A stretch of 64,000 nucleotides of DNA, from positions 3,905 through 67,904 of the forward strand of contig JBLNAX010000068.1 of the NCBI GenBank assembly GCA_050259595.1. Direction: 5' to 3'. Shown piece by piece: positions 56,001-63,852 of the stretch. The notes beneath the pieces were generated by a model. It ran no database searches and had not been told where the DNA came from. It worked only from the letters and a program-made list of their open reading frames with translations. How positions within the stretch are numbered: the first letter of the stretch is position 1; each line of letters starts with the position of its first letter. The position numbers were made by a program, and so were the translations under genes. This DNA comes from Acidobacteriota bacterium (lineage in GTDB: Bacteria; Bacillota; Syntrophomonadia; Syntrophomonadales; DTU052).

Positions 56001-59000
56001 AGAGAGAGTATTTCTATGTGGTAGATTTGATCGATTGGTACGGCAACGCCAGCCGCAGTGCGGAAGTAGCGGTCAGACCACTGGCCAATGACCCATATGC
56101 GCCGACTGCGGAAGCTGATGAAGATCAGATTACTAATGTCGGAATGGACACTCAGTTTGATGGGTCATTGTCACGCGATAATGATGAGATTAGCCGCTAT
56201 ATTTGGGCATTTGGTGATGGAAGTCAGGTGGAGGAAAGCACTCCGGTTCACCGGTATTCGACACCCGGAACTTACGCAGTATCGCTTACTGTATACGACT
56301 CTGCAGGAAACAGTTCAATCGATAGCTGCCTGGTTACTGTTCGACCGGAAGCGGACCTGGGTTATCTGGACATCTATGTCGTTGACGCAGCCAATGGCCT
56401 GCCGCTGGTCGGAGCCAGTGTGGTTGTCGAAGGGGCCAGCGGAACCAGACGTAAAGTGCTCTCCGGAGAAAATGGATATATACATACCACGGTAGAGGTT
56501 GGTTCCTGTAAAGTATATGCCTATATTAAGGATTACCTGCCCGAGCAGTTCAACACTACCATTACCAAAGGCGAAACCACCAATGTCACAGCTAAGATAG
56601 GGAAAGGCCAACTGGTACAGGGCGAAATTACGGTTAAGCGTATGACCCTTGAGGAAATCAGGGATGCCGGTATTGATGTTTATGCACCCGAAAACCAGTA
56701 TGTATATCAATACAATATAAACCTGGCAGTTGATAATACATGTACATACACGTTACAGGCTAATGCCAGGGGTCAAGTCATAAGATGGACAGGCCCGTCA
56801 AATTATACTCCGAGTGTGCTTCCGCATACGGGGCACCCTGGAGTAGCGCCGACCTTATTTATTATGAAGACCCCGCCGCATGGAACAGCTCTATGGCTGA
56901 AGGAGTTCTTTGAAGTGAGCCTGGTTGTTCAAAATATGGCTGATCCCCAGTTTGTTATTGAACAATCTTCAGCCACCCTGGAACTGCCGGCTGGTCTCTC
57001 CCTGGCACCCACCAGAGATGTTCAAAGCTTTATTATTGACATGGGCTCACTGGCGGGTGGCGAAGAAAAGCAGGCCAAGTGGATAATTCGCGGCGATCAA
57101 AAGGGTGACAATTACCACGTCTCGGCTAATTTCAAGGGTGTTCTGCAGCCGTTCGGTGATAATGTCGAAGCGCGTTTTCAAAACCAGGAGCCGTTCAGAG
57201 TCTGGGGCGGGGACGCAATTAACATGGTGGTTTATGCCGAGGATTCCGCAGTCAAAGGTCGGCCATATAAGATAGCAGTTTGTTTTGACAATGTTTCAGA
57301 TCATGATGTCTATAATATTACCAATTCACTTCAACTGCCGGAAGCTAGCTGGATTCCGCAATGGTCATGGGCAAATACCATCGAAACACTTAAACCGGGC
57401 AAAAGAGCTGTTTGGTATTACATATTCCTGCCCAAATTTACAGGACGGATCAAGGAAGACCCATTCTCCAATATTGCTTATATGGGTGGTCAATCGGTAA
57501 AATCTCGTTTGGTTTTAGTTCGTGCTTCAAATCGAGATGCCCAAAATGTCATTACAATTGCCGATCCTATAGATCCTGTAACCGGTGCATTCAAATACGA
57601 TATGAGTCTGCTAAGTTTGCAGGGTGTAAGGCCGTTGGAATTTAAAGTGAATTATGATTCCCAATCCAAAACTATAGGTACTATGGGATTAGGATGGGAC
57701 CACGGTTTCACAACCAGATTAGAGCAGACAGGGGACGGGAACCTGATAATACACTGGCCGCAGAACCAATGGAGCGCATTTATCAAGGATACGGACAACA
57801 CTTATAAATGTATTGAACCGTCATTGAAGTTTGACCTGATTGTTAAGAATCCTGATGGGAGCTATACCCTAACCCGTAAGGATTCATCCGTCTACGAATT
57901 TAATGCCCAAGGCCAGTTTACATCCGAGAAGGATGTGAGCGGAGGTGCGCTCCTCTACACTTACGAAGAGAAACAGCTAAAGTCTATCACTGAACCGGTT
58001 TCTGGCTGCAGCTTGACCTTTACATACAACGAACAGGGTCTGCTCTCCCAGGTAACCGATAACTCAGATCGTTCCGTGTCCCTACAATATGACGTCAACA
58101 AGAATCTAACTGTAATTACCGGACTCGGAAATGCCACCACCACCTTCGAATATGATGAGTGTGGTCGCATAGTCAAGGAAATTGATGCTCAGGGACAGCC
58201 GGTGATAATCAATACCTACGATTTAGATGGCCGGGTAACTGCCCAGACAGACCGTGAAGGCAGAGTGACTAACTTAAGTTATGATACCAGCAGTGATACC
58301 GCCAACACTGTCAACTCCACTGACAGGAATGGGCAAGCCAAAACATATAGTTTCGACTTTAATGGAAACTTGGTCAGTCAGCAGGATGGAATAAATCAAG
58401 GTATCAACTTTACATACGATGACGAAGGCAACTGCATCAAGGATACCGATGCAGAAGGTAGTTCAACAGACTATACATACGACAGCCGGGGCAATCTGCT
58501 GACTATCAGCGATGGCGGCTCGATTACCAGTACCATGACTTACGATGAGCGGGATAACCTGCTCACAGATATCGATGCAGCAGGACAGACAACCATTTAT
58601 ACATATAACTCTGATAATACAAGGGCTACGAAAACTGATCCATCGGGAAATACAACTTCATACACCTATAATGAAAATAAGCAGGTAACATCAATTACTG
58701 GACCCGATGGCGGAGTAAAAAGCTTCACCTATGAAAATGGGCTGACTAAGACTATTACAGATGAGACCGGCCGAACGACTACCTACACATATAATCAGAT
58801 TGGCAAGCCAGTCTCAATAACCAATGCTTCGGGTCAGACCAGTACCATGGAATACGATATTCGCGGTAATCTGATCAGTATGACCAATCCCATGGGTAAT
58901 ACCGTTTCTTACACTTACGATGCCATGGGCTGGAAGACATCCGAGACAGACGCTCGTGGAAATACTACAACATTTGAATATGACAGCTATGGTAAAGTAA

Positions 59001-61924
59001 CTGCTATAAAAGATGCGCTGGGCAACATCACGCGCAATGAATACGATGCCGAGGGAAGGCTTCTTAAAACTATAGATGCCAGGGGGAATTGTACTACTCT
59101 TACTTATGATGCCAGGGGGCGCCTGGAGACCACCACAAATGCCCTGGGTTTTTCAATTCGTTACTATTATGATGCTCTGGACCATATTACTGGCATAGAA
59201 GATGCCTTGGGACGCCGGGTTTTTACCCAATCATATGACGGTGACGGTAACCCGGTCACCCTAACCGACTCACTTGGCAATACAACCACCAATCAATACG
59301 ATGAACTAGGCGGCCTTACTCAACAAATAGATGCTACCGGCCACCTCAAATCGTATGGGTACGATCAATTGGGAAATCTAACCTCTAGCTATCAAGCCGG
59401 TGTTTTGGCTTCACGCACTTATGACTCCAGCGGCCGCATATTAACCAGTACCGATCCCAATGACAATAAAACTACCTTTACCTATGATCTGGCTGGGCGG
59501 CTGCTGACTCAAACCAGTGCAGCCGGTGGTGTGATTAGCTATACATATAACCAGGCTGGATTAGTGGCCACCAAGACCAATGCCCGCGGACAGATGACTA
59601 CTTATTCGTACAATGCGGCTGGGCTGTTGACATCTACCACCGATCAGAATGGTACAACAACTTATTCCTATGATGCCAATGGCAATGTCCTTACCAAATC
59701 TGATTCTACCGGAACCATGACCCGGGAGTATGACGTTCTGAACAGGGTGACCAAATACACGGATGTCAGAGGCAACATCATTCGTTACCAGTACGATGCG
59801 GTGGGCAATCTGACCGCCCTCACCTATCCAGATGGCAAACAGGTGCATTATGAATATGATGCCTGCAATCAGTTGATCAGGGTAACGGATTGGGCTAATA
59901 GAGTGACCTCGTATGAGTATGATCCGAATGGTATGCTTGCCAGTACAACACGTCCTGATGGCTCGGTAGAGACCCGCAGCTATGACGCCATGGGCCAGTT
60001 GACGAATATGAAAGATACTGATAAAAACGGCCAGTCGCTCAATGAATACAGTTACGCTTACGATGCCGAAGGAGCTATAACTACAGAGACGGACTCAGCT
60101 CCAGAGGTCAATTACACCATGCCCGAAAAGACCATGTCATATGGACCGGATAACCGTTTGATCACCTATAATGAACAAACCATGACCTATGATGCAGATG
60201 GCAATATGACCAACGGGCCGTTAAAGGGTCAAATGGCCAACTATACTTTTGATTGCCGGAACCGGCTTATAAGCGTAGGAAATACCAGCTATACTTACGA
60301 TGCTGAGGATCATCGCATTACGGTTGCTGAAAATGGTAGTCAGACAGATTATGTTGTCAATCCCAGCAATCTAGATCAGATATTGATGAGGGTCGGTCCA
60401 GATGGACAAAAAACATATTATGTATATGGCTTAGGGCTGCTGGGTCAGGAAAATCCGGACAGCACATACCAGACATATCATTATGATTACCGGGGCAGCA
60501 CAACGGCTATCACCGACCAGGATGGGGCAGTTACTGACCGCTGCCAATACGGCCCATACGGGGAACTGGTCAGCCGTGAAGGAACCACCGATACACCTTT
60601 CCTTTATAATGGCAAGTTCGGAGTTATGACCGACAATAGTGGACTGTATTACATGCAGGCACGATATTATAACCCGGAGATAATGCGCTTTATCAATGCT
60701 GATGTGGTACTGGGCGAAATCGACGATCCAGCCTCTATGAACCGTTACGCTTATGCCAACGGTCAGCCTATTAACAATACCGATCCCTTTGGCCTGTGTT
60801 CTAAGGAAGCTAATGATTTATGGAACCTGTTCAAGCTTTATAAAGAGGGGGAATGGGATGGCTTCTGGCGTTCGTTCAAAGATATGCTTGTAGGTTTATA
60901 TGACCTGAGTAAATACGCCATTAAGGAGGCCTTCACGTCGACAGATATGTACGGCTATCCTGTTTATCCCTGGGAACCGTCTTTTTACATATCCAAGATA
61001 TTGAACGCGATTAATGTCGGCTATGATATATACAAGTGTGTCGATACGGAAGAGGAAAAACGTATCTTATGGGCTAATATTACGAAAGTATGTGACATGG
61101 CCTGGGACAAGTATATGAAATCTACCAAGGAACAGAGGGCATATTGGGCGGGTTTTGTTACTGGATATCTGGAGGGCACACTAACATCAATTGTTATAAC
61201 TGCTGGCGTTGGAGCTGAAGTCAAGGCAGCGTCTCTAGCTGGAAATGTAGCTCGCTTAGGCAGAGGAGGCACCTGGTTCCGCAGAATTATTAGCGCTGTA
61301 AAGAAAGGATTGAAGAAAGGCGGAGCCGCAGGTGAGGCAAGTAGAATTTTTGAGCTTAATCTCGGTAAGTTTTTTAAATTTGTTAGTAAGCTTGATGCCG
61401 AGAGTTGGGGGAATAGAGTCTTTAGAAATTGGGAGGCAGGGCTCACCTCAGTTGAAAGACAAGCGATCTACGATTATACAACAGATGCATATTACCAGAA
61501 TATAAATAATGTGCTTAGGGGTATCGAAACTGACTTTGCTCCGGGCAATGCTGCCAGGGTAGCGGAGATAACCAATGCATTAGATAAGGCACTGATAACG
61601 GATGACATTGTAGTTTATCGAGGGGTCACAAGGGAGGCTCTAGGTGCCTACAAGAGTTTACCCAATGATAAACTTGTTGGTAAACTACTAGAAGAGAAAG
61701 CTTTTTTGAGTACAAGTTTAATTCCCGAAGGAGCTTTTGATACGCCAATAACTTACATAATAAAAGTTCCGAAGGGGATTAAGGGTGCATTTATTGAAAA
61801 TATAAGTATGTTCGGTTCTCAAGAAGTAGAATTATTGATTCAAAGAGGACAGAGAATGATAATTCAACAAGTTGTTGAAAATGGATCAAATTTAATGTTG
61901 GTAATGGAAATAGTTCCGTGGTAA
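47012..61924 (+). CDS. giant RHS/YD-repeat polymorphic toxin (4970 aa) with FN3, RCC1, PPC, PKD and Ig-like domains and a C-terminal ADP-ribosyltransferase
   Basis: N-terminal signal peptide, then more than 20 FN3 units (LxWxASTDNVGVxGYxxYRNG...YxYxVKAxDxAGNxS). Two RCC1 blocks (GxxHSLALxxxGxVWxWGxNxxGQLG). A PPC-like segment (GDNDYVKFT) and a PKD domain (WAFGDGS...HRYSTPGTYAVSLTVYDSAGN). The RHS shell runs from DPIDPVTGAF (about 57560), with dozens of YD repeats and the core end YYMQARYYNPEIMRFINADV...NRYAYANGQPINNTDPFGL. Confidence 0.92.
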   Translation: MSRLKFRGIAILLVALMMVCTCTSDYFSIVRSISSVLMADESTPPDIVPDTLAPSSPTNLTIVSQTYDSVSLTWNASTDDSGVVGYIVYKNGMEYGVATETNYTDNGLSPANNYTYSVKALDQYGNLSDASNEVLIQIPEQPVTPPAVALSAPSNLSITSQTYDSVSLFWSASTGGTGVVTYVVYRNDEQISTTNDTAYSDSGLVSGTSYVYCVKAVDATGTESEASNQVTWSDQNNQSPGGNDSNSGGAGGGGGTISPNGLTSPVNLAVYEQTSSSVTLTWDAATGTVNYVVYRDGNEIGTVINNAYTDSGLTVGTTYKYIVKAVDEAGNVSQVSNEVTVQIPAIETVTPPSNLQAVVNSFNSVSLSWTAPSSENIVAYVVYRNGESITTVIGTAYVDTKLPVATTYSYTVKAVDTDGKISLGSNEAFVTLPALQIKKVPLAAGDSHSLIVKSDGKVWSWGSNGGGQLGSGTAQSTIPVKVLDLVGIQAVSGGYYHSLALDSNGWVWAWGANSSGELGIGSELDSSKPEKVQNLEGIIAIEAGNSYSLALKNDGTVWAWGSNYNGIFGNNELDESNVPVQINGLAGVVAIAAGQSHCLALMNDGTVWGWGSNSEGQLADNNDGQPARISNLSGITAIAAGGYHSLALASNGVVWSWGNNASGQLGIGMPPYSAYQPTAMNISGIKAIAAGEEFSLALKDNGSVVSFGANWGGQLGNDSTYQWQTYGTVSQINNVTSIACGDTHGLAVESSGKVWAWGWNSNGQLGNGTTTQSIVPVTLVDSQPPTAPKNLAMTNMTESSLTLVWEESDDFFGVTGYDIYRNGTKIASTSSTGYVDTSINKDSIYSYTVKAFDAAGNYSSASNVASNDVMPPSAPTNLTVLDVTGSLVSLSWTVSTDNGAVTGYKILRNGIEIDSSATNSYIDNNVLAGETYVYCVKAFDAASNLSDSSNEVSVTTAALNINKVYLSAGGNQSAWLKNNGRLFIWGSNVNDLDYSAGDLTIPTELPIDNVAAVADGSNHIVYLKNNGSVWVSGANWDGQLGKPGAGESSPIQVPGVGGIIAVASNNNHTLALRATGKVCAWGNNSYGQCGTGDTSSPSLPADVKNLTDVISIACGESFSIALKSNGEVVAWGRNDYGQLGNGTTAPSYTPVNVKTSTGNLTGVIAIAAGSKHALALLANGTVYAWGYNYYFQLGYSAYNYSARAQQVSGLTGVTAIAAGYYHSLALKSNGEVWGWGRNIDGQLGTGSTSWNSALVKVKDLSGVIAIAAGNSHSLGLRSDEKVFAWGYNGYGQLGNGTKSPISYPVPVGDSQPPAAPGNLVVNSTSTTSSLKWDAAQDNVGVIGYEVYRNGEKIATVNTTIYQDNELTPEGNYEYSVKAFDAAGNISAFSNLAVRDYEAPTAPGNLVFNNADFTSVSISWDAATDNMGVKGYKIYRDGVEAGSSISTTYTDTGLIPGKSYTYIVKAFDAGENLSSASNELTLSTSADLEKPSKPTNLNIYFYNTQAKIYWSEATDNVGVVGYEVYKNGLKIATVIDNQYYDNAASGDSYTVFACDAAGNYSESSDSYLFIDDFGNKKEDAASIDLGQEKVGYINYSGDNDYVKFTTTVAGSYLVDASTVPPGGYLTVELLSSSGSHLASDTFNEESPATLTRSLQGNSTYYVCIYETPMYGFDDQSEPPSPPANCRGGYRIKIYPADNEPPTPPANLTAVDKTATSLTLTWDAATDNIGVAGYSIYRDGLKIGDTSNLSYAVNGLLPNNTYIFAVKAYDLKGNFSIESTVQVSTETDTEPPTVPENLVVTEKNGRNTTLSWTASTDNKGLAGYELYRNGTKLVTVTDTVYSDNGLINGTYSYTVKAIDLAGNTSDSSNQVEVIVNEDITPPTAPQNLTASQIKLKSIYITWQASTDNVGVKWYYVYRDGKFINGGTGAFTGAEDFQVTPGATYQYYVRAVDAAGNMSEPSNTITVTSLQDTAAPTAPTNLRVIARGAESVSLKWNTSTDDVGVLEYSIFRNDIKVGTSTGLEFYDTGFDRTAVNTYYVKALDAAANLSQPSNSVIHEIIPPSIPQNLSLVSKTSRNINITWDASTDNVTVSGYEVFRDGTSIARTVYTSFSDNGLIPEQTYTYTVRSFDSVGNISNTSSALSVITDPDTIPPTIPQALSLVGYTGSTVSIKWNPSTDDYQMAKYEVFRNGTSVGQTVYSHFTDTVLNVGTDYIYTVKAIDSAGNVSDASSTLTAAPQLPQITRVEPPNNTLIGGLSSRNLRVYYKDTADTGETLGAEYSLDNAVWNNTGFAFNGPYQYDGSTQYFNCTWSSPLTASGKYTVRFTLTDSTAHSVQKVVYYQIDNEAPMVPKNLTAQPIVGGGGIQLAWDPPIDTDISYYQIYRSVYAEEGYTPLYRMSAGICSYTDRSALPGTKCYYKVSAVDVNGQESAASASANAIAPSDTVCPVVTSLYPAFGSGLGLNPVFTVNSHDNLGIKSTKLQYSLNDGVDWTDIGSTNGYAQFPWSTQGLSGQVKIRAIVTDYSDNVSDGTPVYSYFIDHDGPAKVTGLAGTPKATGVLLKWQDVPDNDLAYFQVEKATTQDGQFVVYQTTSRYLGMNVTGLTANTDYWFRVVAFDVRGNAGTYSDVVQVRTTEDTDSPVVTAIRPGAGYYAGAIPLSADAWDDVGVTSVKLQYSQDKVQWNDIETITPAEVAARVTVNYNWDTTTMAEGSYFVRAIAVDTNQHDNSTQNSWVEYRVNRSAPTDAPQGLTLTEAAGNLRLIWQNIDDPGLAGYKVYRAQGINGPFNQISSAALIGYYDYNVQPGITYYYKVAAYNAVGLVGPDSEIVSGKLLDDNEAPKIISVVPASGDTLPGNPEISALVSDNYKVATVELKYKSATEGDDWHSIAQRSVNKSSEVVAFTWNADGLSDGSYTLRLVVADAGGRVTESSDLNYNLKVYKVSPPVLTAVAADWKVNLSWTGEKGEYFKEYRIYRSTVTGQFYKLIKTTTDNSCCDDVISPEREYFYVVDLIDWYGNASRSAEVAVRPLANDPYAPTAEADEDQITNVGMDTQFDGSLSRDNDEISRYIWAFGDGSQVEESTPVHRYSTPGTYAVSLTVYDSAGNSSIDSCLVTVRPEADLGYLDIYVVDAANGLPLVGASVVVEGASGTRRKVLSGENGYIHTTVEVGSCKVYAYIKDYLPEQFNTTITKGETTNVTAKIGKGQLVQGEITVKRMTLEEIRDAGIDVYAPENQYVYQYNINLAVDNTCTYTLQANARGQVIRWTGPSNYTPSVLPHTGHPGVAPTLFIMKTPPHGTALWLKEFFEVSLVVQNMADPQFVIEQSSATLELPAGLSLAPTRDVQSFIIDMGSLAGGEEKQAKWIIRGDQKGDNYHVSANFKGVLQPFGDNVEARFQNQEPFRVWGGDAINMVVYAEDSAVKGRPYKIAVCFDNVSDHDVYNITNSLQLPEASWIPQWSWANTIETLKPGKRAVWYYIFLPKFTGRIKEDPFSNIAYMGGQSVKSRLVLVRASNRDAQNVITIADPIDPVTGAFKYDMSLLSLQGVRPLEFKVNYDSQSKTIGTMGLGWDHGFTTRLEQTGDGNLIIHWPQNQWSAFIKDTDNTYKCIEPSLKFDLIVKNPDGSYTLTRKDSSVYEFNAQGQFTSEKDVSGGALLYTYEEKQLKSITEPVSGCSLTFTYNEQGLLSQVTDNSDRSVSLQYDVNKNLTVITGLGNATTTFEYDECGRIVKEIDAQGQPVIINTYDLDGRVTAQTDREGRVTNLSYDTSSDTANTVNSTDRNGQAKTYSFDFNGNLVSQQDGINQGINFTYDDEGNCIKDTDAEGSSTDYTYDSRGNLLTISDGGSITSTMTYDERDNLLTDIDAAGQTTIYTYNSDNTRATKTDPSGNTTSYTYNENKQVTSITGPDGGVKSFTYENGLTKTITDETGRTTTYTYNQIGKPVSITNASGQTSTMEYDIRGNLISMTNPMGNTVSYTYDAMGWKTSETDARGNTTTFEYDSYGKVTAIKDALGNITRNEYDAEGRLLKTIDARGNCTTLTYDARGRLETTTNALGFSIRYYYDALDHITGIEDALGRRVFTQSYDGDGNPVTLTDSLGNTTTNQYDELGGLTQQIDATGHLKSYGYDQLGNLTSSYQAGVLASRTYDSSGRILTSTDPNDNKTTFTYDLAGRLLTQTSAAGGVISYTYNQAGLVATKTNARGQMTTYSYNAAGLLTSTTDQNGTTTYSYDANGNVLTKSDSTGTMTREYDVLNRVTKYTDVRGNIIRYQYDAVGNLTALTYPDGKQVHYEYDACNQLIRVTDWANRVTSYEYDPNGMLASTTRPDGSVETRSYDAMGQLTNMKDTDKNGQSLNEYSYAYDAEGAITTETDSAPEVNYTMPEKTMSYGPDNRLITYNEQTMTYDADGNMTNGPLKGQMANYTFDCRNRLISVGNTSYTYDAEDHRITVAENGSQTDYVVNPSNLDQILMRVGPDGQKTYYVYGLGLLGQENPDSTYQTYHYDYRGSTTAITDQDGAVTDRCQYGPYGELVSREGTTDTPFLYNGKFGVMTDNSGLYYMQARYYNPEIMRFINADVVLGEIDDPASMNRYAYANGQPINNTDPFGLCSKEANDLWNLFKLYKEGEWDGFWRSFKDMLVGLYDLSKYAIKEAFTSTDMYGYPVYPWEPSFYISKILNAINVGYDIYKCVDTEEEKRILWANITKVCDMAWDKYMKSTKEQRAYWAGFVTGYLEGTLTSIVITAGVGAEVKAASLAGNVARLGRGGTWFRRIISAVKKGLKKGGAAGEASRIFELNLGKFFKFVSKLDAESWGNRVFRNWEAGLTSVERQAIYDYTTDAYYQNINNVLRGIETDFAPGNAARVAEITNALDKALITDDIVVYRGVTREALGAYKSLPNDKLVGKLLEEKAFLSTSLIPEGAFDTPITYIIKVPKGIKGAFIENISMFGSQEVELLIQRGQRMIIQQVVENGSNLMLVMEIVPW
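60797..61921 (+). other. C-terminal toxin cassette of the RHS protein: linker with hydrophobic segment + R-S-E ADP-ribosyltransferase domain (about 61454-61921)
   Basis: It begins directly after DPFGL. The ART triad is VVYRGV (Arg), AFLSTSL (STS) and GSQEVELL (ExE), preceded by YDYTTDAYYQNINNVLRG, as in C3/VIP2-type toxins. Confidence 0.75.
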
Positions 61925-61940
61925 GGAGGAATGAAGGAAT

Positions 61941-62147
61941 ATGGTTAGGCCAAGTAAGCCAAGTAGAGTGGACAGATTCAATTACACTAGGCCTGAGGAA
62001 ATAATAATAATAACTTTGCAATGTGAGAGCTGTAAAAACAAGTTGGATGACCCCATGATATGCACTGAATATGTGGAGAGAAAGCCAAATGGTGTTTTGA
62101 GAGCTGAATCCGATTGTCCAAAGTATAGTCCAATTGAACAGAGGTAA
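61941..62147 (+). CDS. small Cys-rich hypothetical protein
   Basis: A 68-aa ORF 12 nt after AAGGAGG. The spacing CESC...C...DCPKY suggests a zinc-ribbon-like fold. It sits between the toxin and the ARH gene. Confidence 0.4.
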   Translation: MVRPSKPSRVDRFNYTRPEEIIIITLQCESCKNKLDDPMICTEYVERKPNGVLRAESDCPKYSPIEQR

Positions 62148-62150
62148 TTT

Positions 62151-63089
62151 GTGAGTAACCGCGTTTTGGAAGGCTTCTTAGGCTTATGTGTAGGCGATGC
62201 ATTAGGGGTCCCCGTCGAATTTGTTTCCAGGGACCAGTTGTTGAAATTGCCAGTAACTAACATGACGGGATTTGGTACCCACAATCAACCGCCGGGAACT
62301 TGGTCTGATGATAGTTCATTGTCTTTCTGTTTGGCAGAGAGTCTATGTAATGGCTTTGACATTGTAGATATTTCGCAAAGATTTGTTCGATGGTATGTTG
62401 ACGGTTATTGGACTCCGCATGGAATTGTGTTTGATATTGGAAACGCAACATTACAGGCTATTAATAGAATTATATCAGGATGTAAGCCTGAAGACGCGGG
62501 TGGTAAGACCGATGGTGACAACGGAAATGGTTCATTGATGCGAATATTACCCTTAGCTTACTATTTATTAAGATTCGATGATATTGAGACCCGAATGAAG
62601 ATCGTTCATGATGTTTCTGCGATCACCCATGGTCATATTCGATCAAAGATGGCATGTGTCCTGTTCATTGAATTGGCTATCAGTATACTAAAAGGTAAAA
62701 ATAAAATCGAAGCTTATAATGATGTCATTAAGCAGTTTGAATCAATTTACAGTTATGATTTGTATACAACAGAATTAATACACTTTAAGAATATAATCTC
62801 CGGAAAAATTGATAATCTAGAAAGGTACAAGATTTCATCTTCGGGGTATGTAATCCATACACTTGAGGCTAGTATCTGGTGTCTACTAAATAGTGGCGAT
62901 TATAAAGAAGCTGTTTTAAAGGCTGTTAACCTTGGAGATGACACGGATACTACTGCTGCTGTTACTGGCGGACTAGCTGGAATATATTATGGAATGGGTT
63001 CTATTCCAAAAGAATGGATAGATGTTCTAGCGAGAAAAGATGATATTTTTGCATTATGTGAGCGGTTTGCAAAGAATATGAATACGTGA
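62151..63089 (+). CDS. ADP-ribosylglycohydrolase (ARH/DraG family), candidate immunity protein
   Basis: GLCVGDALGVPVEF, WSDDSSL, GNGSLMRILP and LGDDTDTTAAVTGGLAGIYYG are the conserved ARH motifs. Confidence 0.88.
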   Translation: MSNRVLEGFLGLCVGDALGVPVEFVSRDQLLKLPVTNMTGFGTHNQPPGTWSDDSSLSFCLAESLCNGFDIVDISQRFVRWYVDGYWTPHGIVFDIGNATLQAINRIISGCKPEDAGGKTDGDNGNGSLMRILPLAYYLLRFDDIETRMKIVHDVSAITHGHIRSKMACVLFIELAISILKGKNKIEAYNDVIKQFESIYSYDLYTTELIHFKNIISGKIDNLERYKISSSGYVIHTLEASIWCLLNSGDYKEAVLKAVNLGDDTDTTAAVTGGLAGIYYGMGSIPKEWIDVLARKDDIFALCERFAKNMNT

Positions 63090-63146: not shown

Positions 63147-63593
63147 GTGTCAACTGGTAAGATTGCAAGTGATAATACAATCCAAATCTTAAAAGCGGCT
63201 GGATGGTATGAAGGACGCAAGATTGATATTGAAGTTTTTGAATCAAATCTAAACAAATTAGGATATGAAGTGTTTCAACCGGTTAAACAGTTCTTACAGG
63301 AATTTGGCATGTTGAAGTTTCAGGATGCTCTTGAACAAGTTCATGATACATCAAAAATATTTATTGAATACTTCAAACATGGCAAGTTCTCCATTGAAGA
63401 GAATTATTGTGGTGAAAGATTAGTTCCGGTAGGAACTCTGTCAGATGGAGAGTTGCTTTTATTTGTATCGGAAAGTGGAAAAGTTTATTGTAGCACGGGC
63501 AAATTAGGCGATAATCCATGGGAGGCATGGGAATGTTTAATTAATAATACAAGCTTCAAGAGTTGGGGAACTTTGCAGAGAGACAGAGGCTAA
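63147..63593 (+). CDS. SUKH-family (SUKH-3-like) immunity protein
   Basis: ILKAAGWYEGRKIDIEVFESNLNKLGYEVFQPVKQFLQEFGML ... LVPVGTLSDGELLLFVSESGKVY matches the SUKH-3 pattern as I recall it. Confidence 0.6.
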   Translation: MSTGKIASDNTIQILKAAGWYEGRKIDIEVFESNLNKLGYEVFQPVKQFLQEFGMLKFQDALEQVHDTSKIFIEYFKHGKFSIEENYCGERLVPVGTLSDGELLLFVSESGKVYCSTGKLGDNPWEAWECLINNTSFKSWGTLQRDRG

Positions 63594-63609: not shown

Positions 63610-63852
63610 GTGGCTACTTACGTGTTACTAATTAAGGATTTCGAGGATGATGAAAAAGTTGTATATCGTTTTGGCCCAGATAAAGAAAGAATGGGGAAGA
63701 TTCAGTTAAACAAAAGTGACGGCGAGTATTTAGAAATTGAACCAGTACCAGAAACCGATACCACGTTCTATTTCAATCGAGCAGTATCAAAACTACTGAA
63801 ACATTTGAAAAGTGGCGAGGGATTCCCTGACCGAACTCATTTTGCATCTTGA
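63610..63852 (+). CDS. hypothetical small protein (possible additional immunity gene)
   Basis: An 80-aa ORF with a GTG start after GGACGGTGA. No motif was recognised. Confidence 0.4.
   Translation: MATYVLLIKDFEDDEKVVYRFGPDKERMGKIQLNKSDGEYLEIEPVPETDTTFYFNRAVSKLLKHLKSGEGFPDRTHFAS

Follow-up and report, generated by a model that had tools for sequence, protein, structure and literature searches.

We analysed a toxin locus on a 64,000-nucleotide stretch of contig JBLNAX010000068.1 (hereafter the window), in which the gene for a secreted polymorphic toxin is followed by a gene for a 68-aa protein with four invariant cysteines (Cys4), which we call the mini-protein, and by a gene for an ADP-ribosylhydrolase (ARH). 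The toxin ends in an ADP-ribosyltransferase (ART) domain. A SUKH-3 gene and an 80-aa open reading frame (ORF) lie further downstream, and no terminator-like site was found between the toxin gene and the ARH, SUKH-3 and 80-aa ORF that follow it.

Table 1. Features of the toxin locus, with positions in the window.
Feature	Position	Strand	Basis
Secreted polymorphic toxin, 4970 aa	47012..61924	+	ORF list and Pfam architecture
DUF6531 (PF20148) and RHS/YD repeat cocoon (PF05593)	57563..60796	+	Pfam; TIGR01643
Pre-toxin region, about 200 aa, predicted helical	60797..61396	+	hydropathy, isoelectric point, custom profile
R-S-ExE ADP-ribosyltransferase domain	61397..61921	+	PF03496, PDB homologues, invariant columns
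68-aa cytoplasmic Cys4 mini-protein, candidate structural immunity	61941..62147	+	conserved family, synteny
DraG/Tri1-type ADP-ribosylhydrolase, 312 aa	62151..63089	+	PF03747, PDB alignments
SUKH-3 protein	63147..63593	+	PF14433, E=3.5e-25
80-aa ORF in the same terminator-free gene string	63610..63852	+	ORF list, terminator scan

The toxin is built, in order, of a hydrophobic, signal-like N-terminus (MSRLKFRGIAILLVALMMVC), a stalk in which Pfam recognizes many Fn3 domains, RCC1-type propellers, PKD and Ig domains, a DUF6531 domain, an RHS cocoon, a cleavage motif, a pre-toxin module, and the ART domain. The cocoon comprises 14-23 RHS repeats (PF05593), preceded by DUF6531, and leads into an RHS-associated core domain at aa 4513-4595 (NCBIfam TIGR03696, 71.5 bits against a cutoff of 32.5). 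The match to this core ends exactly at L4595, the last residue of the motif DPFGL (aa 4591-4595, nt 60782-60796), and because the core stops there we take position 60797 to begin the first residue of the released tail. RHS proteins free their tail by autoproteolysis at a DPxGL aspartyl autoprotease motif, and by analogy with the family we predict autoproteolysis after DPFGL here. With its repeats and DUF6531, a core ending in DPxGL, and a variable tail after it, the protein belongs to the Rhs/YD polymorphic toxins; in place of the features of the LXG/type VII secretion system (T7SS) class it has the signal-like N-terminus and the Fn3/RCC1 stalk. The gene directly upstream of that of the toxin (window:44423-46975, +) encodes an 850-aa LamG/Big_2 protein that has one RHS repeat only.

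The tail that follows the cleavage site is 380 aa long, with residues 1-205 forming the pre-toxin part and residues 206-367 matching Pfam ADPrib_exo_Tox (PF03496; E=7.7e-32, 110.7 bits, cutoff 23.4). A first-pass annotation of this DNA had proposed an RHS-borne R-S-E ART of about 155 residues, separated from the cleavage site by a spacer of about 220. The triad is indeed present and the domain does lie at the end of the tail, while the PF03496 boundaries give a domain of about 175 aa and a spacer of about 200 aa. Specifically, the catalytic arginine R4870 sits in YRG (nt 61616-61624; Arg codon 61619-61621), followed by S4900-T-S4902 (61709-61717) and E4938-V-E4940 (61823-61831). Homologues show little or no variation in the R, STS, and ExE columns, which are in register with VIP2 and Lmo0066, and the structures matched in the PDB are those of Lmo0066 (8za7_B), VIP2, Certhrax, C3, CdtA, and Tre1. 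The catalytic motif is a true ExE, preceded by Q. QxE characterizes the asparagine-modifying C3 group, and ExE points to an arginine acceptor. Since the motif is ExE rather than QxE and the partner ARH belongs to the DraG/Tri1 clade, arginine is most likely the acceptor of this ART; among ART relatives, FtsZ and EF-Tu are precedents as targets. The ART search gave about 2200 representatives, and some of these relatives are giants that hold many ARTs in tandem: P0016 (4019 aa) consists of 8 Pfam ART stretches and nothing else, and in P0076 (3397 aa) and P0060 (1289 aa) 2-4 ART domains are joined to a phage MuF domain.

The mini-protein gene starts 16 nt past the toxin stop, and its Shine-Dalgarno sequence, AAGGAGG, overlaps the toxin stop codon. 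Its product is 60% identical (E=2e-25) to a 63-aa ORF at the same position in a related locus, L002, and a profile search gathers a family of 12 clusters, none of them annotated and none with a Pfam domain. Four cysteines, C28, C31, C41, and C59, are invariant in this family, which shares the core motif Y-x-E-R-K-P-N-x-V-L. At the level of sequence, then, the 68-aa ORF is a real gene. We found no relative of the mini-protein in Pfam or the PDB, where profile matches are weak and zinc-ribbon-like (E>=0.1); its profile did not match the Tri1 chain at E<=10, and a plasmid search returned no match to it.

The ARH gene begins with GTG, 3 nt after the mini-protein stop. Its product covers PF03747 (ADP_ribosyl_GH) end to end (E=1.4e-79, 268 bits, profile positions 2-287 of 287), and its residues E23, S52-D53-D54, D95, and D264-x-D266-T267 align to E28, T-D60-D, D97, and D-x-D-T of DraG, which bears out the earlier description of a full-length ARH/DraG hydrolase with all metal-binding motifs, encoded by the second gene downstream of the toxin. 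Its closest relatives of solved structure are Lmo0067 (8za7_A, E=5e-92, ~48% identity), a Thermus ARH, Tri1 (6dre_A, E=1.9e-43), and DraG. The intact catalytic residues and the homology to DraG, Tri1, and Lmo0067 suggest that the enzyme removes ADP-ribosyl-arginine. With 197 bits where NCBIfam NF041672 requires 490, it falls short of a Tri1 equivalog, and it lacks the Tri1-like N-terminal extension of ~70 aa, its residue 8 aligning to Tri1 residue 75.

In order to see how these genes travel, we compared three sets of DNA: contigs carrying the mini-protein, loci retrieved with the ART alignment, and contigs on which the closest ARHs are encoded. The census is small, with 4 close genome loci and 12 close metagenome loci, and seven lineages are informative, having an ART at least 43% identical and enough surrounding DNA. 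The mini-protein gene lies directly 3' of the ART in all seven, and the ARH gene comes next in five: the window, with its RHS scaffold; L002/L007/L008, with an LXG-like scaffold; L011-L013, with a short toxin of 240 aa; L026, where the scaffold is cut at the contig end; and L027/L028, where a 1906-aa S8-peptidase/NCTSP protein carries an ART 74% identical. No ARH is present in L003/L016, from the Bacillota metagenome-assembled genome (MAG) UBA8347 and a sediment metagenome, or in L010, where the toxin is an 855-aa peptidoglycan-binding protein. The small ORF at 61941, which the first-pass annotation had kept as a mere alternative to the ARH, thus proves to be the most constant partner of the ART, also in loci that lack the ARH. 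P0001 of L002, which among full-length relatives is closest to the toxin tip, has a helical LXG-like N-terminus and is placed in a T7SS context by the DUF4176 gene that adjoins it upstream; it is followed by the 63-aa mini-protein homologue and then by an ARH 60% identical to that of the window. Near more distant ARTs (22-31% identity) neither the mini-protein nor the ARH was found. By gene order and sequence, ART, mini-protein, and ARH are recognizable as a mobile cassette carried on at least five delivery scaffolds, that of L026 included.

The lineages without an ARH differ in the state of the toxin. L003/L016 keep an intact toxin, with an orphan toxin cassette after the mini-protein gene. 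In L003 the orphan module (L003:1898-2593) repeats ~90 aa of the pre-toxin segment of the main toxin before continuing into a different tip, and a 112-aa gene (L003:2594-2932) accompanies the swapped tip, a clear footprint of tip-swapping recombination. In L010 the ART part of the 855-aa PG_binding_1-ART protein is cut 22 codons short by a TAA at a position that Gln occupies in relatives (L010:2560-2640); the mini-protein gene is followed by a hairpin that looks terminator-like by eye and then by a deaminase-like orphan fragment with the motif NCAEV (L010:2990-3089). A further locus, L009, holds mini-protein and ARH genes without an ART (L009:1450-3051), behind a 91-aa fragment with a weak match to TNT, an NADase toxin, and this may be an orphan immunity pair.

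From the domains, motifs, operon, and gene order observed we infer an RHS-borne ART toxin with a split immunity, in which blocking of the toxin falls to the mini-protein and erasure of the modification to the ARH, a reading towards which we lean with modest confidence. A Bacillota-like bacterium would export the RHS surface toxin by the Sec route, and cleavage at DPFGL would free the 380-aa tail, whose ART would mono-ADP-ribosylate an arginine on an essential cytoplasmic protein of a competitor bacterium; the helical pre-toxin module might, more speculatively, serve cell entry. The producer would be shielded by two co-transcribed cytoplasmic proteins that share out the two functions of Tri1, the Cys4 mini-protein acting as a toxin-specific blocker of the ART and the ARH stripping ADP-ribosyl-arginine from targets that are still modified.

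Two known systems show the parts of this arrangement. The principle of ARH immunity against an ART has been proved for Tre1-Tri1, in which Tri1 is bifunctional and occludes Tre1 through residues 27-33 of its N-terminal extension (PMC8120803, PMC11606950). In this pair from the T6SS (type VI secretion system) of Serratia proteamaculans (PDB 6DRE/6DRH), as in the window, an antibacterial R-S-ExE ART stands beside a DraG-like ADP-ribosylarginine hydrolase, and the window ART is homologous to 6dre_B (E=1.7e-5), as its ARH is to 6dre_A. In contrast to Tri1, however, the window ARH is without the occluding extension, and a separate 68-aa protein is encoded between toxin and ARH; delivery also differs, being by a Sec/RHS surface protein in the window and by the T6SS for Tre1. 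In Bxa-Bsi-BAH, from a prophage MuF toxin of Bacteroides stercoris, the ART is neutralized by a small non-enzymatic binder, Bsi, together with a separate ARH eraser, BAH (PMC11699363). Two separate, adjacent immunity genes are the logic that we propose for the window, where the small gene and the ARH gene are likewise both adjacent to and conserved with the ART. Compared by description, the Bxa system differs in phylum, in its phage MuF scaffold, and in the length of Bsi, which exceeds that of the mini-protein (its residues 89-92 matter).

The principal alternative is that the ARH alone provides immunity, both binding the ART and reversing its modification, while the mini-protein serves as a folding or stabilization factor, a zinc-dependent regulator, or a cofactor of the ARH. 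The Listeria monocytogenes pair Lmo0066-Lmo0067 (PDB 8ZA7) speaks for it most directly. It contains the closest solved relatives of both window proteins (the ART ~40% identical, E=1e-32) and is a Gram-positive ART-ARH pair crystallized as a complex, although Lmo0066 is the toxin of a T7SS locus and not an RHS protein; our literature search found no paper describing the structure. The family search found no Listeria homologue of the mini-protein, a search that took in proteins and not the lmo0066-lmo0067 DNA. The ARH follows the ART in five of the seven lineages, and in the Bxa system the hydrolase activity of BAH by itself rescued growth (PMC11699363). Against this explanation, an intact ART and mini-protein occur without an ARH in two independent samples, L003 and L016; the toxin-less pair of L009 behaves as immunity genes do and not as a toxin chaperone would; and the mini-protein accompanies the toxin across different export routes, which indicates that it is specific to the toxin domain. 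We therefore regard immunity by the ARH alone as rather unlikely. Since the mini-protein occurs without the ARH (L003/L016, L010) and stands with the ARH where the ART is absent (L009), two immunities fit better, and the earlier proposal of enzymatic immunity stands insofar as a DraG/Tri1-clade ARH is linked to the ART in those five lineages, the hydrolase alone being the weaker account.

Several observations nevertheless weigh against a split immunity. The chief one is 8ZA7 itself, in which a homologous ARH was crystallized with its ART; because this is an ART-ARH complex, the ARH may bind and inhibit unaided, and the mini-protein may be dispensable for immunity. The binding or occlusion of the ART by the mini-protein as its toxin-specific partner is proposed from linkage only, and pairwise identities of ART and mini-protein across the few loci are not significantly correlated (r=0.30, p=0.18). 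AlphaFold2 (AF2), given the 12-sequence alignment of the family, predicted the mini-protein without secondary structure, at a mean confidence (pLDDT) of 50. Only one lineage with an intact toxin is without an ARH (L003/L016), and its genome may hold one elsewhere. Finally, the assignment to Gram-positive bacteria depends on SLH-domain surface proteins encoded in the window and on Bacillota MAG relatives, all named relatives of the cassette coming from Bacillota or Clostridia MAGs.

The spread of the ARH raises the opposite possibility, that the mini-protein is the sole cognate immunity and the ARH a generic housekeeping or broad-defence enzyme that is often co-located. At E<=1e-40 the ARH matches at least 7993 proteins, many of them 55-60% identical and from cyanobacteria, Leptospiraceae, and Clostridium, and all three of the close relatives that we inspected (from Clostridium, Calothrix, and Leptospiraceae) are standalone among unrelated genes. 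Because relatives at this level of identity are standalone genes, in different phyla, the ARH gives the impression of a generic enzyme that the cassette has taken in. Moreover, ARH identity does not follow ART identity (r about 0, n=10, not significant), and there are the loci without an ARH. Such a spread is as expected of an enzyme with a fixed chemical substrate, rather than of a binding protein that co-evolves with a toxin. The tight translational coupling across the 3-nt gap and the recurrence of the gene order in five lineages on different scaffolds tell against a merely co-located enzyme, as do Tri1 and BAH, both proven protective ARHs, and we consider it improbable that the mini-protein acts alone.

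The relatives of the ART domain also raise the question of its target. After Lmo0066, the nearest characterized enzymes are VIP2, Certhrax, C3, and CdtA, and the matches on Bacillus plasmids are VIP2-like, so the toxin could be aimed mainly at eukaryotic cells, as are VIP2, C3, and iota toxin, with immunity guarding the producer before export, for which Bxa offers a precedent (PMC11699363). The locus has an interbacterial context, however, in that its scaffold is RHS and it is followed downstream by an orphan toxin tip and a poly-immunity array (described below); the same cassette is found on toxins of the LXG/T7SS type; and a mini-protein and ARH pair without a toxin implies defence against an incoming one. 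A mainly eukaryotic target is accordingly quite improbable in our view.

The toxin-plus-eraser design is already known, and the conserved small protein is the one new piece. Zhang et al. 2012 described Tox-ART-RSE domains with RHS repeats and on T7SS/LXG scaffolds in firmicutes, with Imm-ADP-RGHD as enzymatic immunity (PMC3482391). This is exactly the class of the window, an R-S-E tip on RHS, LXG, and other scaffolds, and together with 8ZA7 it leaves unsupported the earlier suggestion that a Gram-positive, RHS-linked version had not been characterized. Unlike the window, the catalogue describes no conserved Cys4 mini-protein between toxin and ARH (PMC3482391), and this family, with its fixed place between the two genes, is the sole element that we could not find described in the literature. 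An RHS cocoon, a DPxGL motif, and an ART tip are likewise shared with the Rhs ARTs TreX-TriX, Tre-Tu, and RhsP2 and with WapA-type Gram-positive Rhs proteins. TriX is a non-enzymatic, occluding immunity protein (PMC8120803, PMC11606950). TreX-TriX, Tre-Tu, and RhsP2 are T6SS-delivered, come from Proteobacteria, and have single immunity proteins, whereas the window toxin has a Sec signal and a very long Fn3/RCC1 stalk and is accompanied by two candidate immunity genes.

With rather less assurance than for the split immunity itself, we offer a more detailed conjecture. The Cys4 protein may found a new family of zinc-ribbon-like mini-immunity proteins that block this clade of arginine ARTs, or that act as a decoy substrate via the conserved E-R-K-P-N loop, so that occlusion and erasure, united in Tri1, would be split over two genes, and the cassette would hop among RHS, LXG/T7SS, S8-peptidase, peptidoglycan-binding, and short scaffolds in Bacillota. 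Immunity that erases a modification can cover non-cognate toxins and thereby shapes who kills whom in microbial communities. The locus is a further example, this one Sec/RHS-delivered and from a Bacillota-like organism that is uncultured, and in it the conserved, unannotated mini-protein probably supplies the toxin-specific half of immunity. If so, it would be the second independent case, after Bxa/Bsi/BAH, of immunity split into a structural and an enzymatic part, and would offer, at ~60 aa, a compact natural scaffold for inhibiting arginine ARTs. For polymorphic ART toxins in general, the locus leaves the basic picture as it was.

The pre-toxin region is poorly represented in databases. Residues 1-205 of the tail have no Pfam match and matched almost nothing among 1.84 billion representative proteins, and a word-indexed protein search with the tail returned one match only. 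A hydropathy scan confirmed the hydrophobic helix noted by the first-pass annotation (nt 61142-61216), which is Gly/Thr-rich and has one Glu inside; its best 19-residue Kyte-Doolittle mean is 1.33, under the usual transmembrane threshold of 1.6, and it is not a classical transmembrane segment. After the module, a basic stretch (pI 11.5) occupies tail residues 151-205. On visual inspection, stretches similar to the one around the helix lie upstream of the ART in P0003, P0009 (which carries a Sec signal), P0012 (which is WXG/LXG-like), P0001, and the L027 protein. BLASTP gave no significant match of the region to either P0012 (E=0.076) or P0009 (E=2.5). A profile built from these five stretches, picked by eye and without that of the window toxin, gave 23.4 bits for tail residues 26-159 (nt 60857-61258), a module that includes the helix, whereas the best of 2000 shuffled versions of the window toxin's sequence reached 11.4; this indicates that the module is real and common to several scaffolds. 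AF2 of the 380-aa tail as a single sequence (pLDDT 41.8) gave a mere hint of a helical pre-toxin part. PT-TG (PF14449), considered as the pre-toxin domain, is present in the relatives P0004 and P0006 and not in the window protein. Hydrophobic or amphipathic helices have been proposed for other Gram-positive toxins (PMC13460014), and a role of this module in crossing the target membrane is speculative; as a shared helical element it is a candidate entry device for Gram-positive targets, where entry is an open question for toxins.

The SUKH-3 gene belongs to a recognized immunity family (PF14433) and lies in the same terminator-free gene string as the toxin, and the first-pass annotation had named its product as a candidate for the cognate immunity of the ART. 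This is very improbable, since SUKH-3 is missing from every other locus with a related ART; among the loci compared, it occurs only on the window's own contig. There, past the window (L001:3401-7189, about window 63900-67690), we observed four small ORFs (160, 128, 102, and 118 aa), an IS200-like Y1 transposase (260 aa), and a deaminase-like orphan toxin tip of 94 aa with the motifs CGE and CKNC directly before two further SUKH-3 genes, a placement that fits a different toxin class. The stretch is a poly-immunity/orphan array, and since it holds an orphan tip and two more SUKH-3 genes, the SUKH-3 gene of the window is probably its first member, an orphan immunity gene. Near the Y1 transposase gene there are two copies of a 28-nt palindromic hairpin, TGTAGCTCACC...GGGCTACA, in opposite orientations (L001:3890-3917 and L001:4752-4779), possibly as a repetitive extragenic palindromic (REP)-like element with a transposase of the REP-associated tyrosine transposase (RAYT) type. 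The 160-aa ORF (L001:3401-3883) has several CxxC pairs and weak zinc-ribbon matches and is a second small Cys-rich protein of the locus.

The window is chromosomal and contains an arg operon. Of five housekeeping proteins looked up, four were found, all of them singletons, and close relatives of the organism are missing from the collection searched. Between this operon and the toxin locus lie genes for a phage-type integrase and a helix-turn-helix (HTH)/M78 (IrrE-like) regulator (window:24518-25669, -, and window:29244-30401, -), which may mark a prophage or an integrative element. The window also encodes several surface proteins of very large size that bear Big_2, Calx-beta, and SLH domains (window:613-12768, +, and window:44423-46975, +). 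Just upstream of the toxin region, a gene for a WYL-HTH regulator stands beside an RtcB RNA ligase gene (window:42096-43058, +, and window:40284-41531, +).

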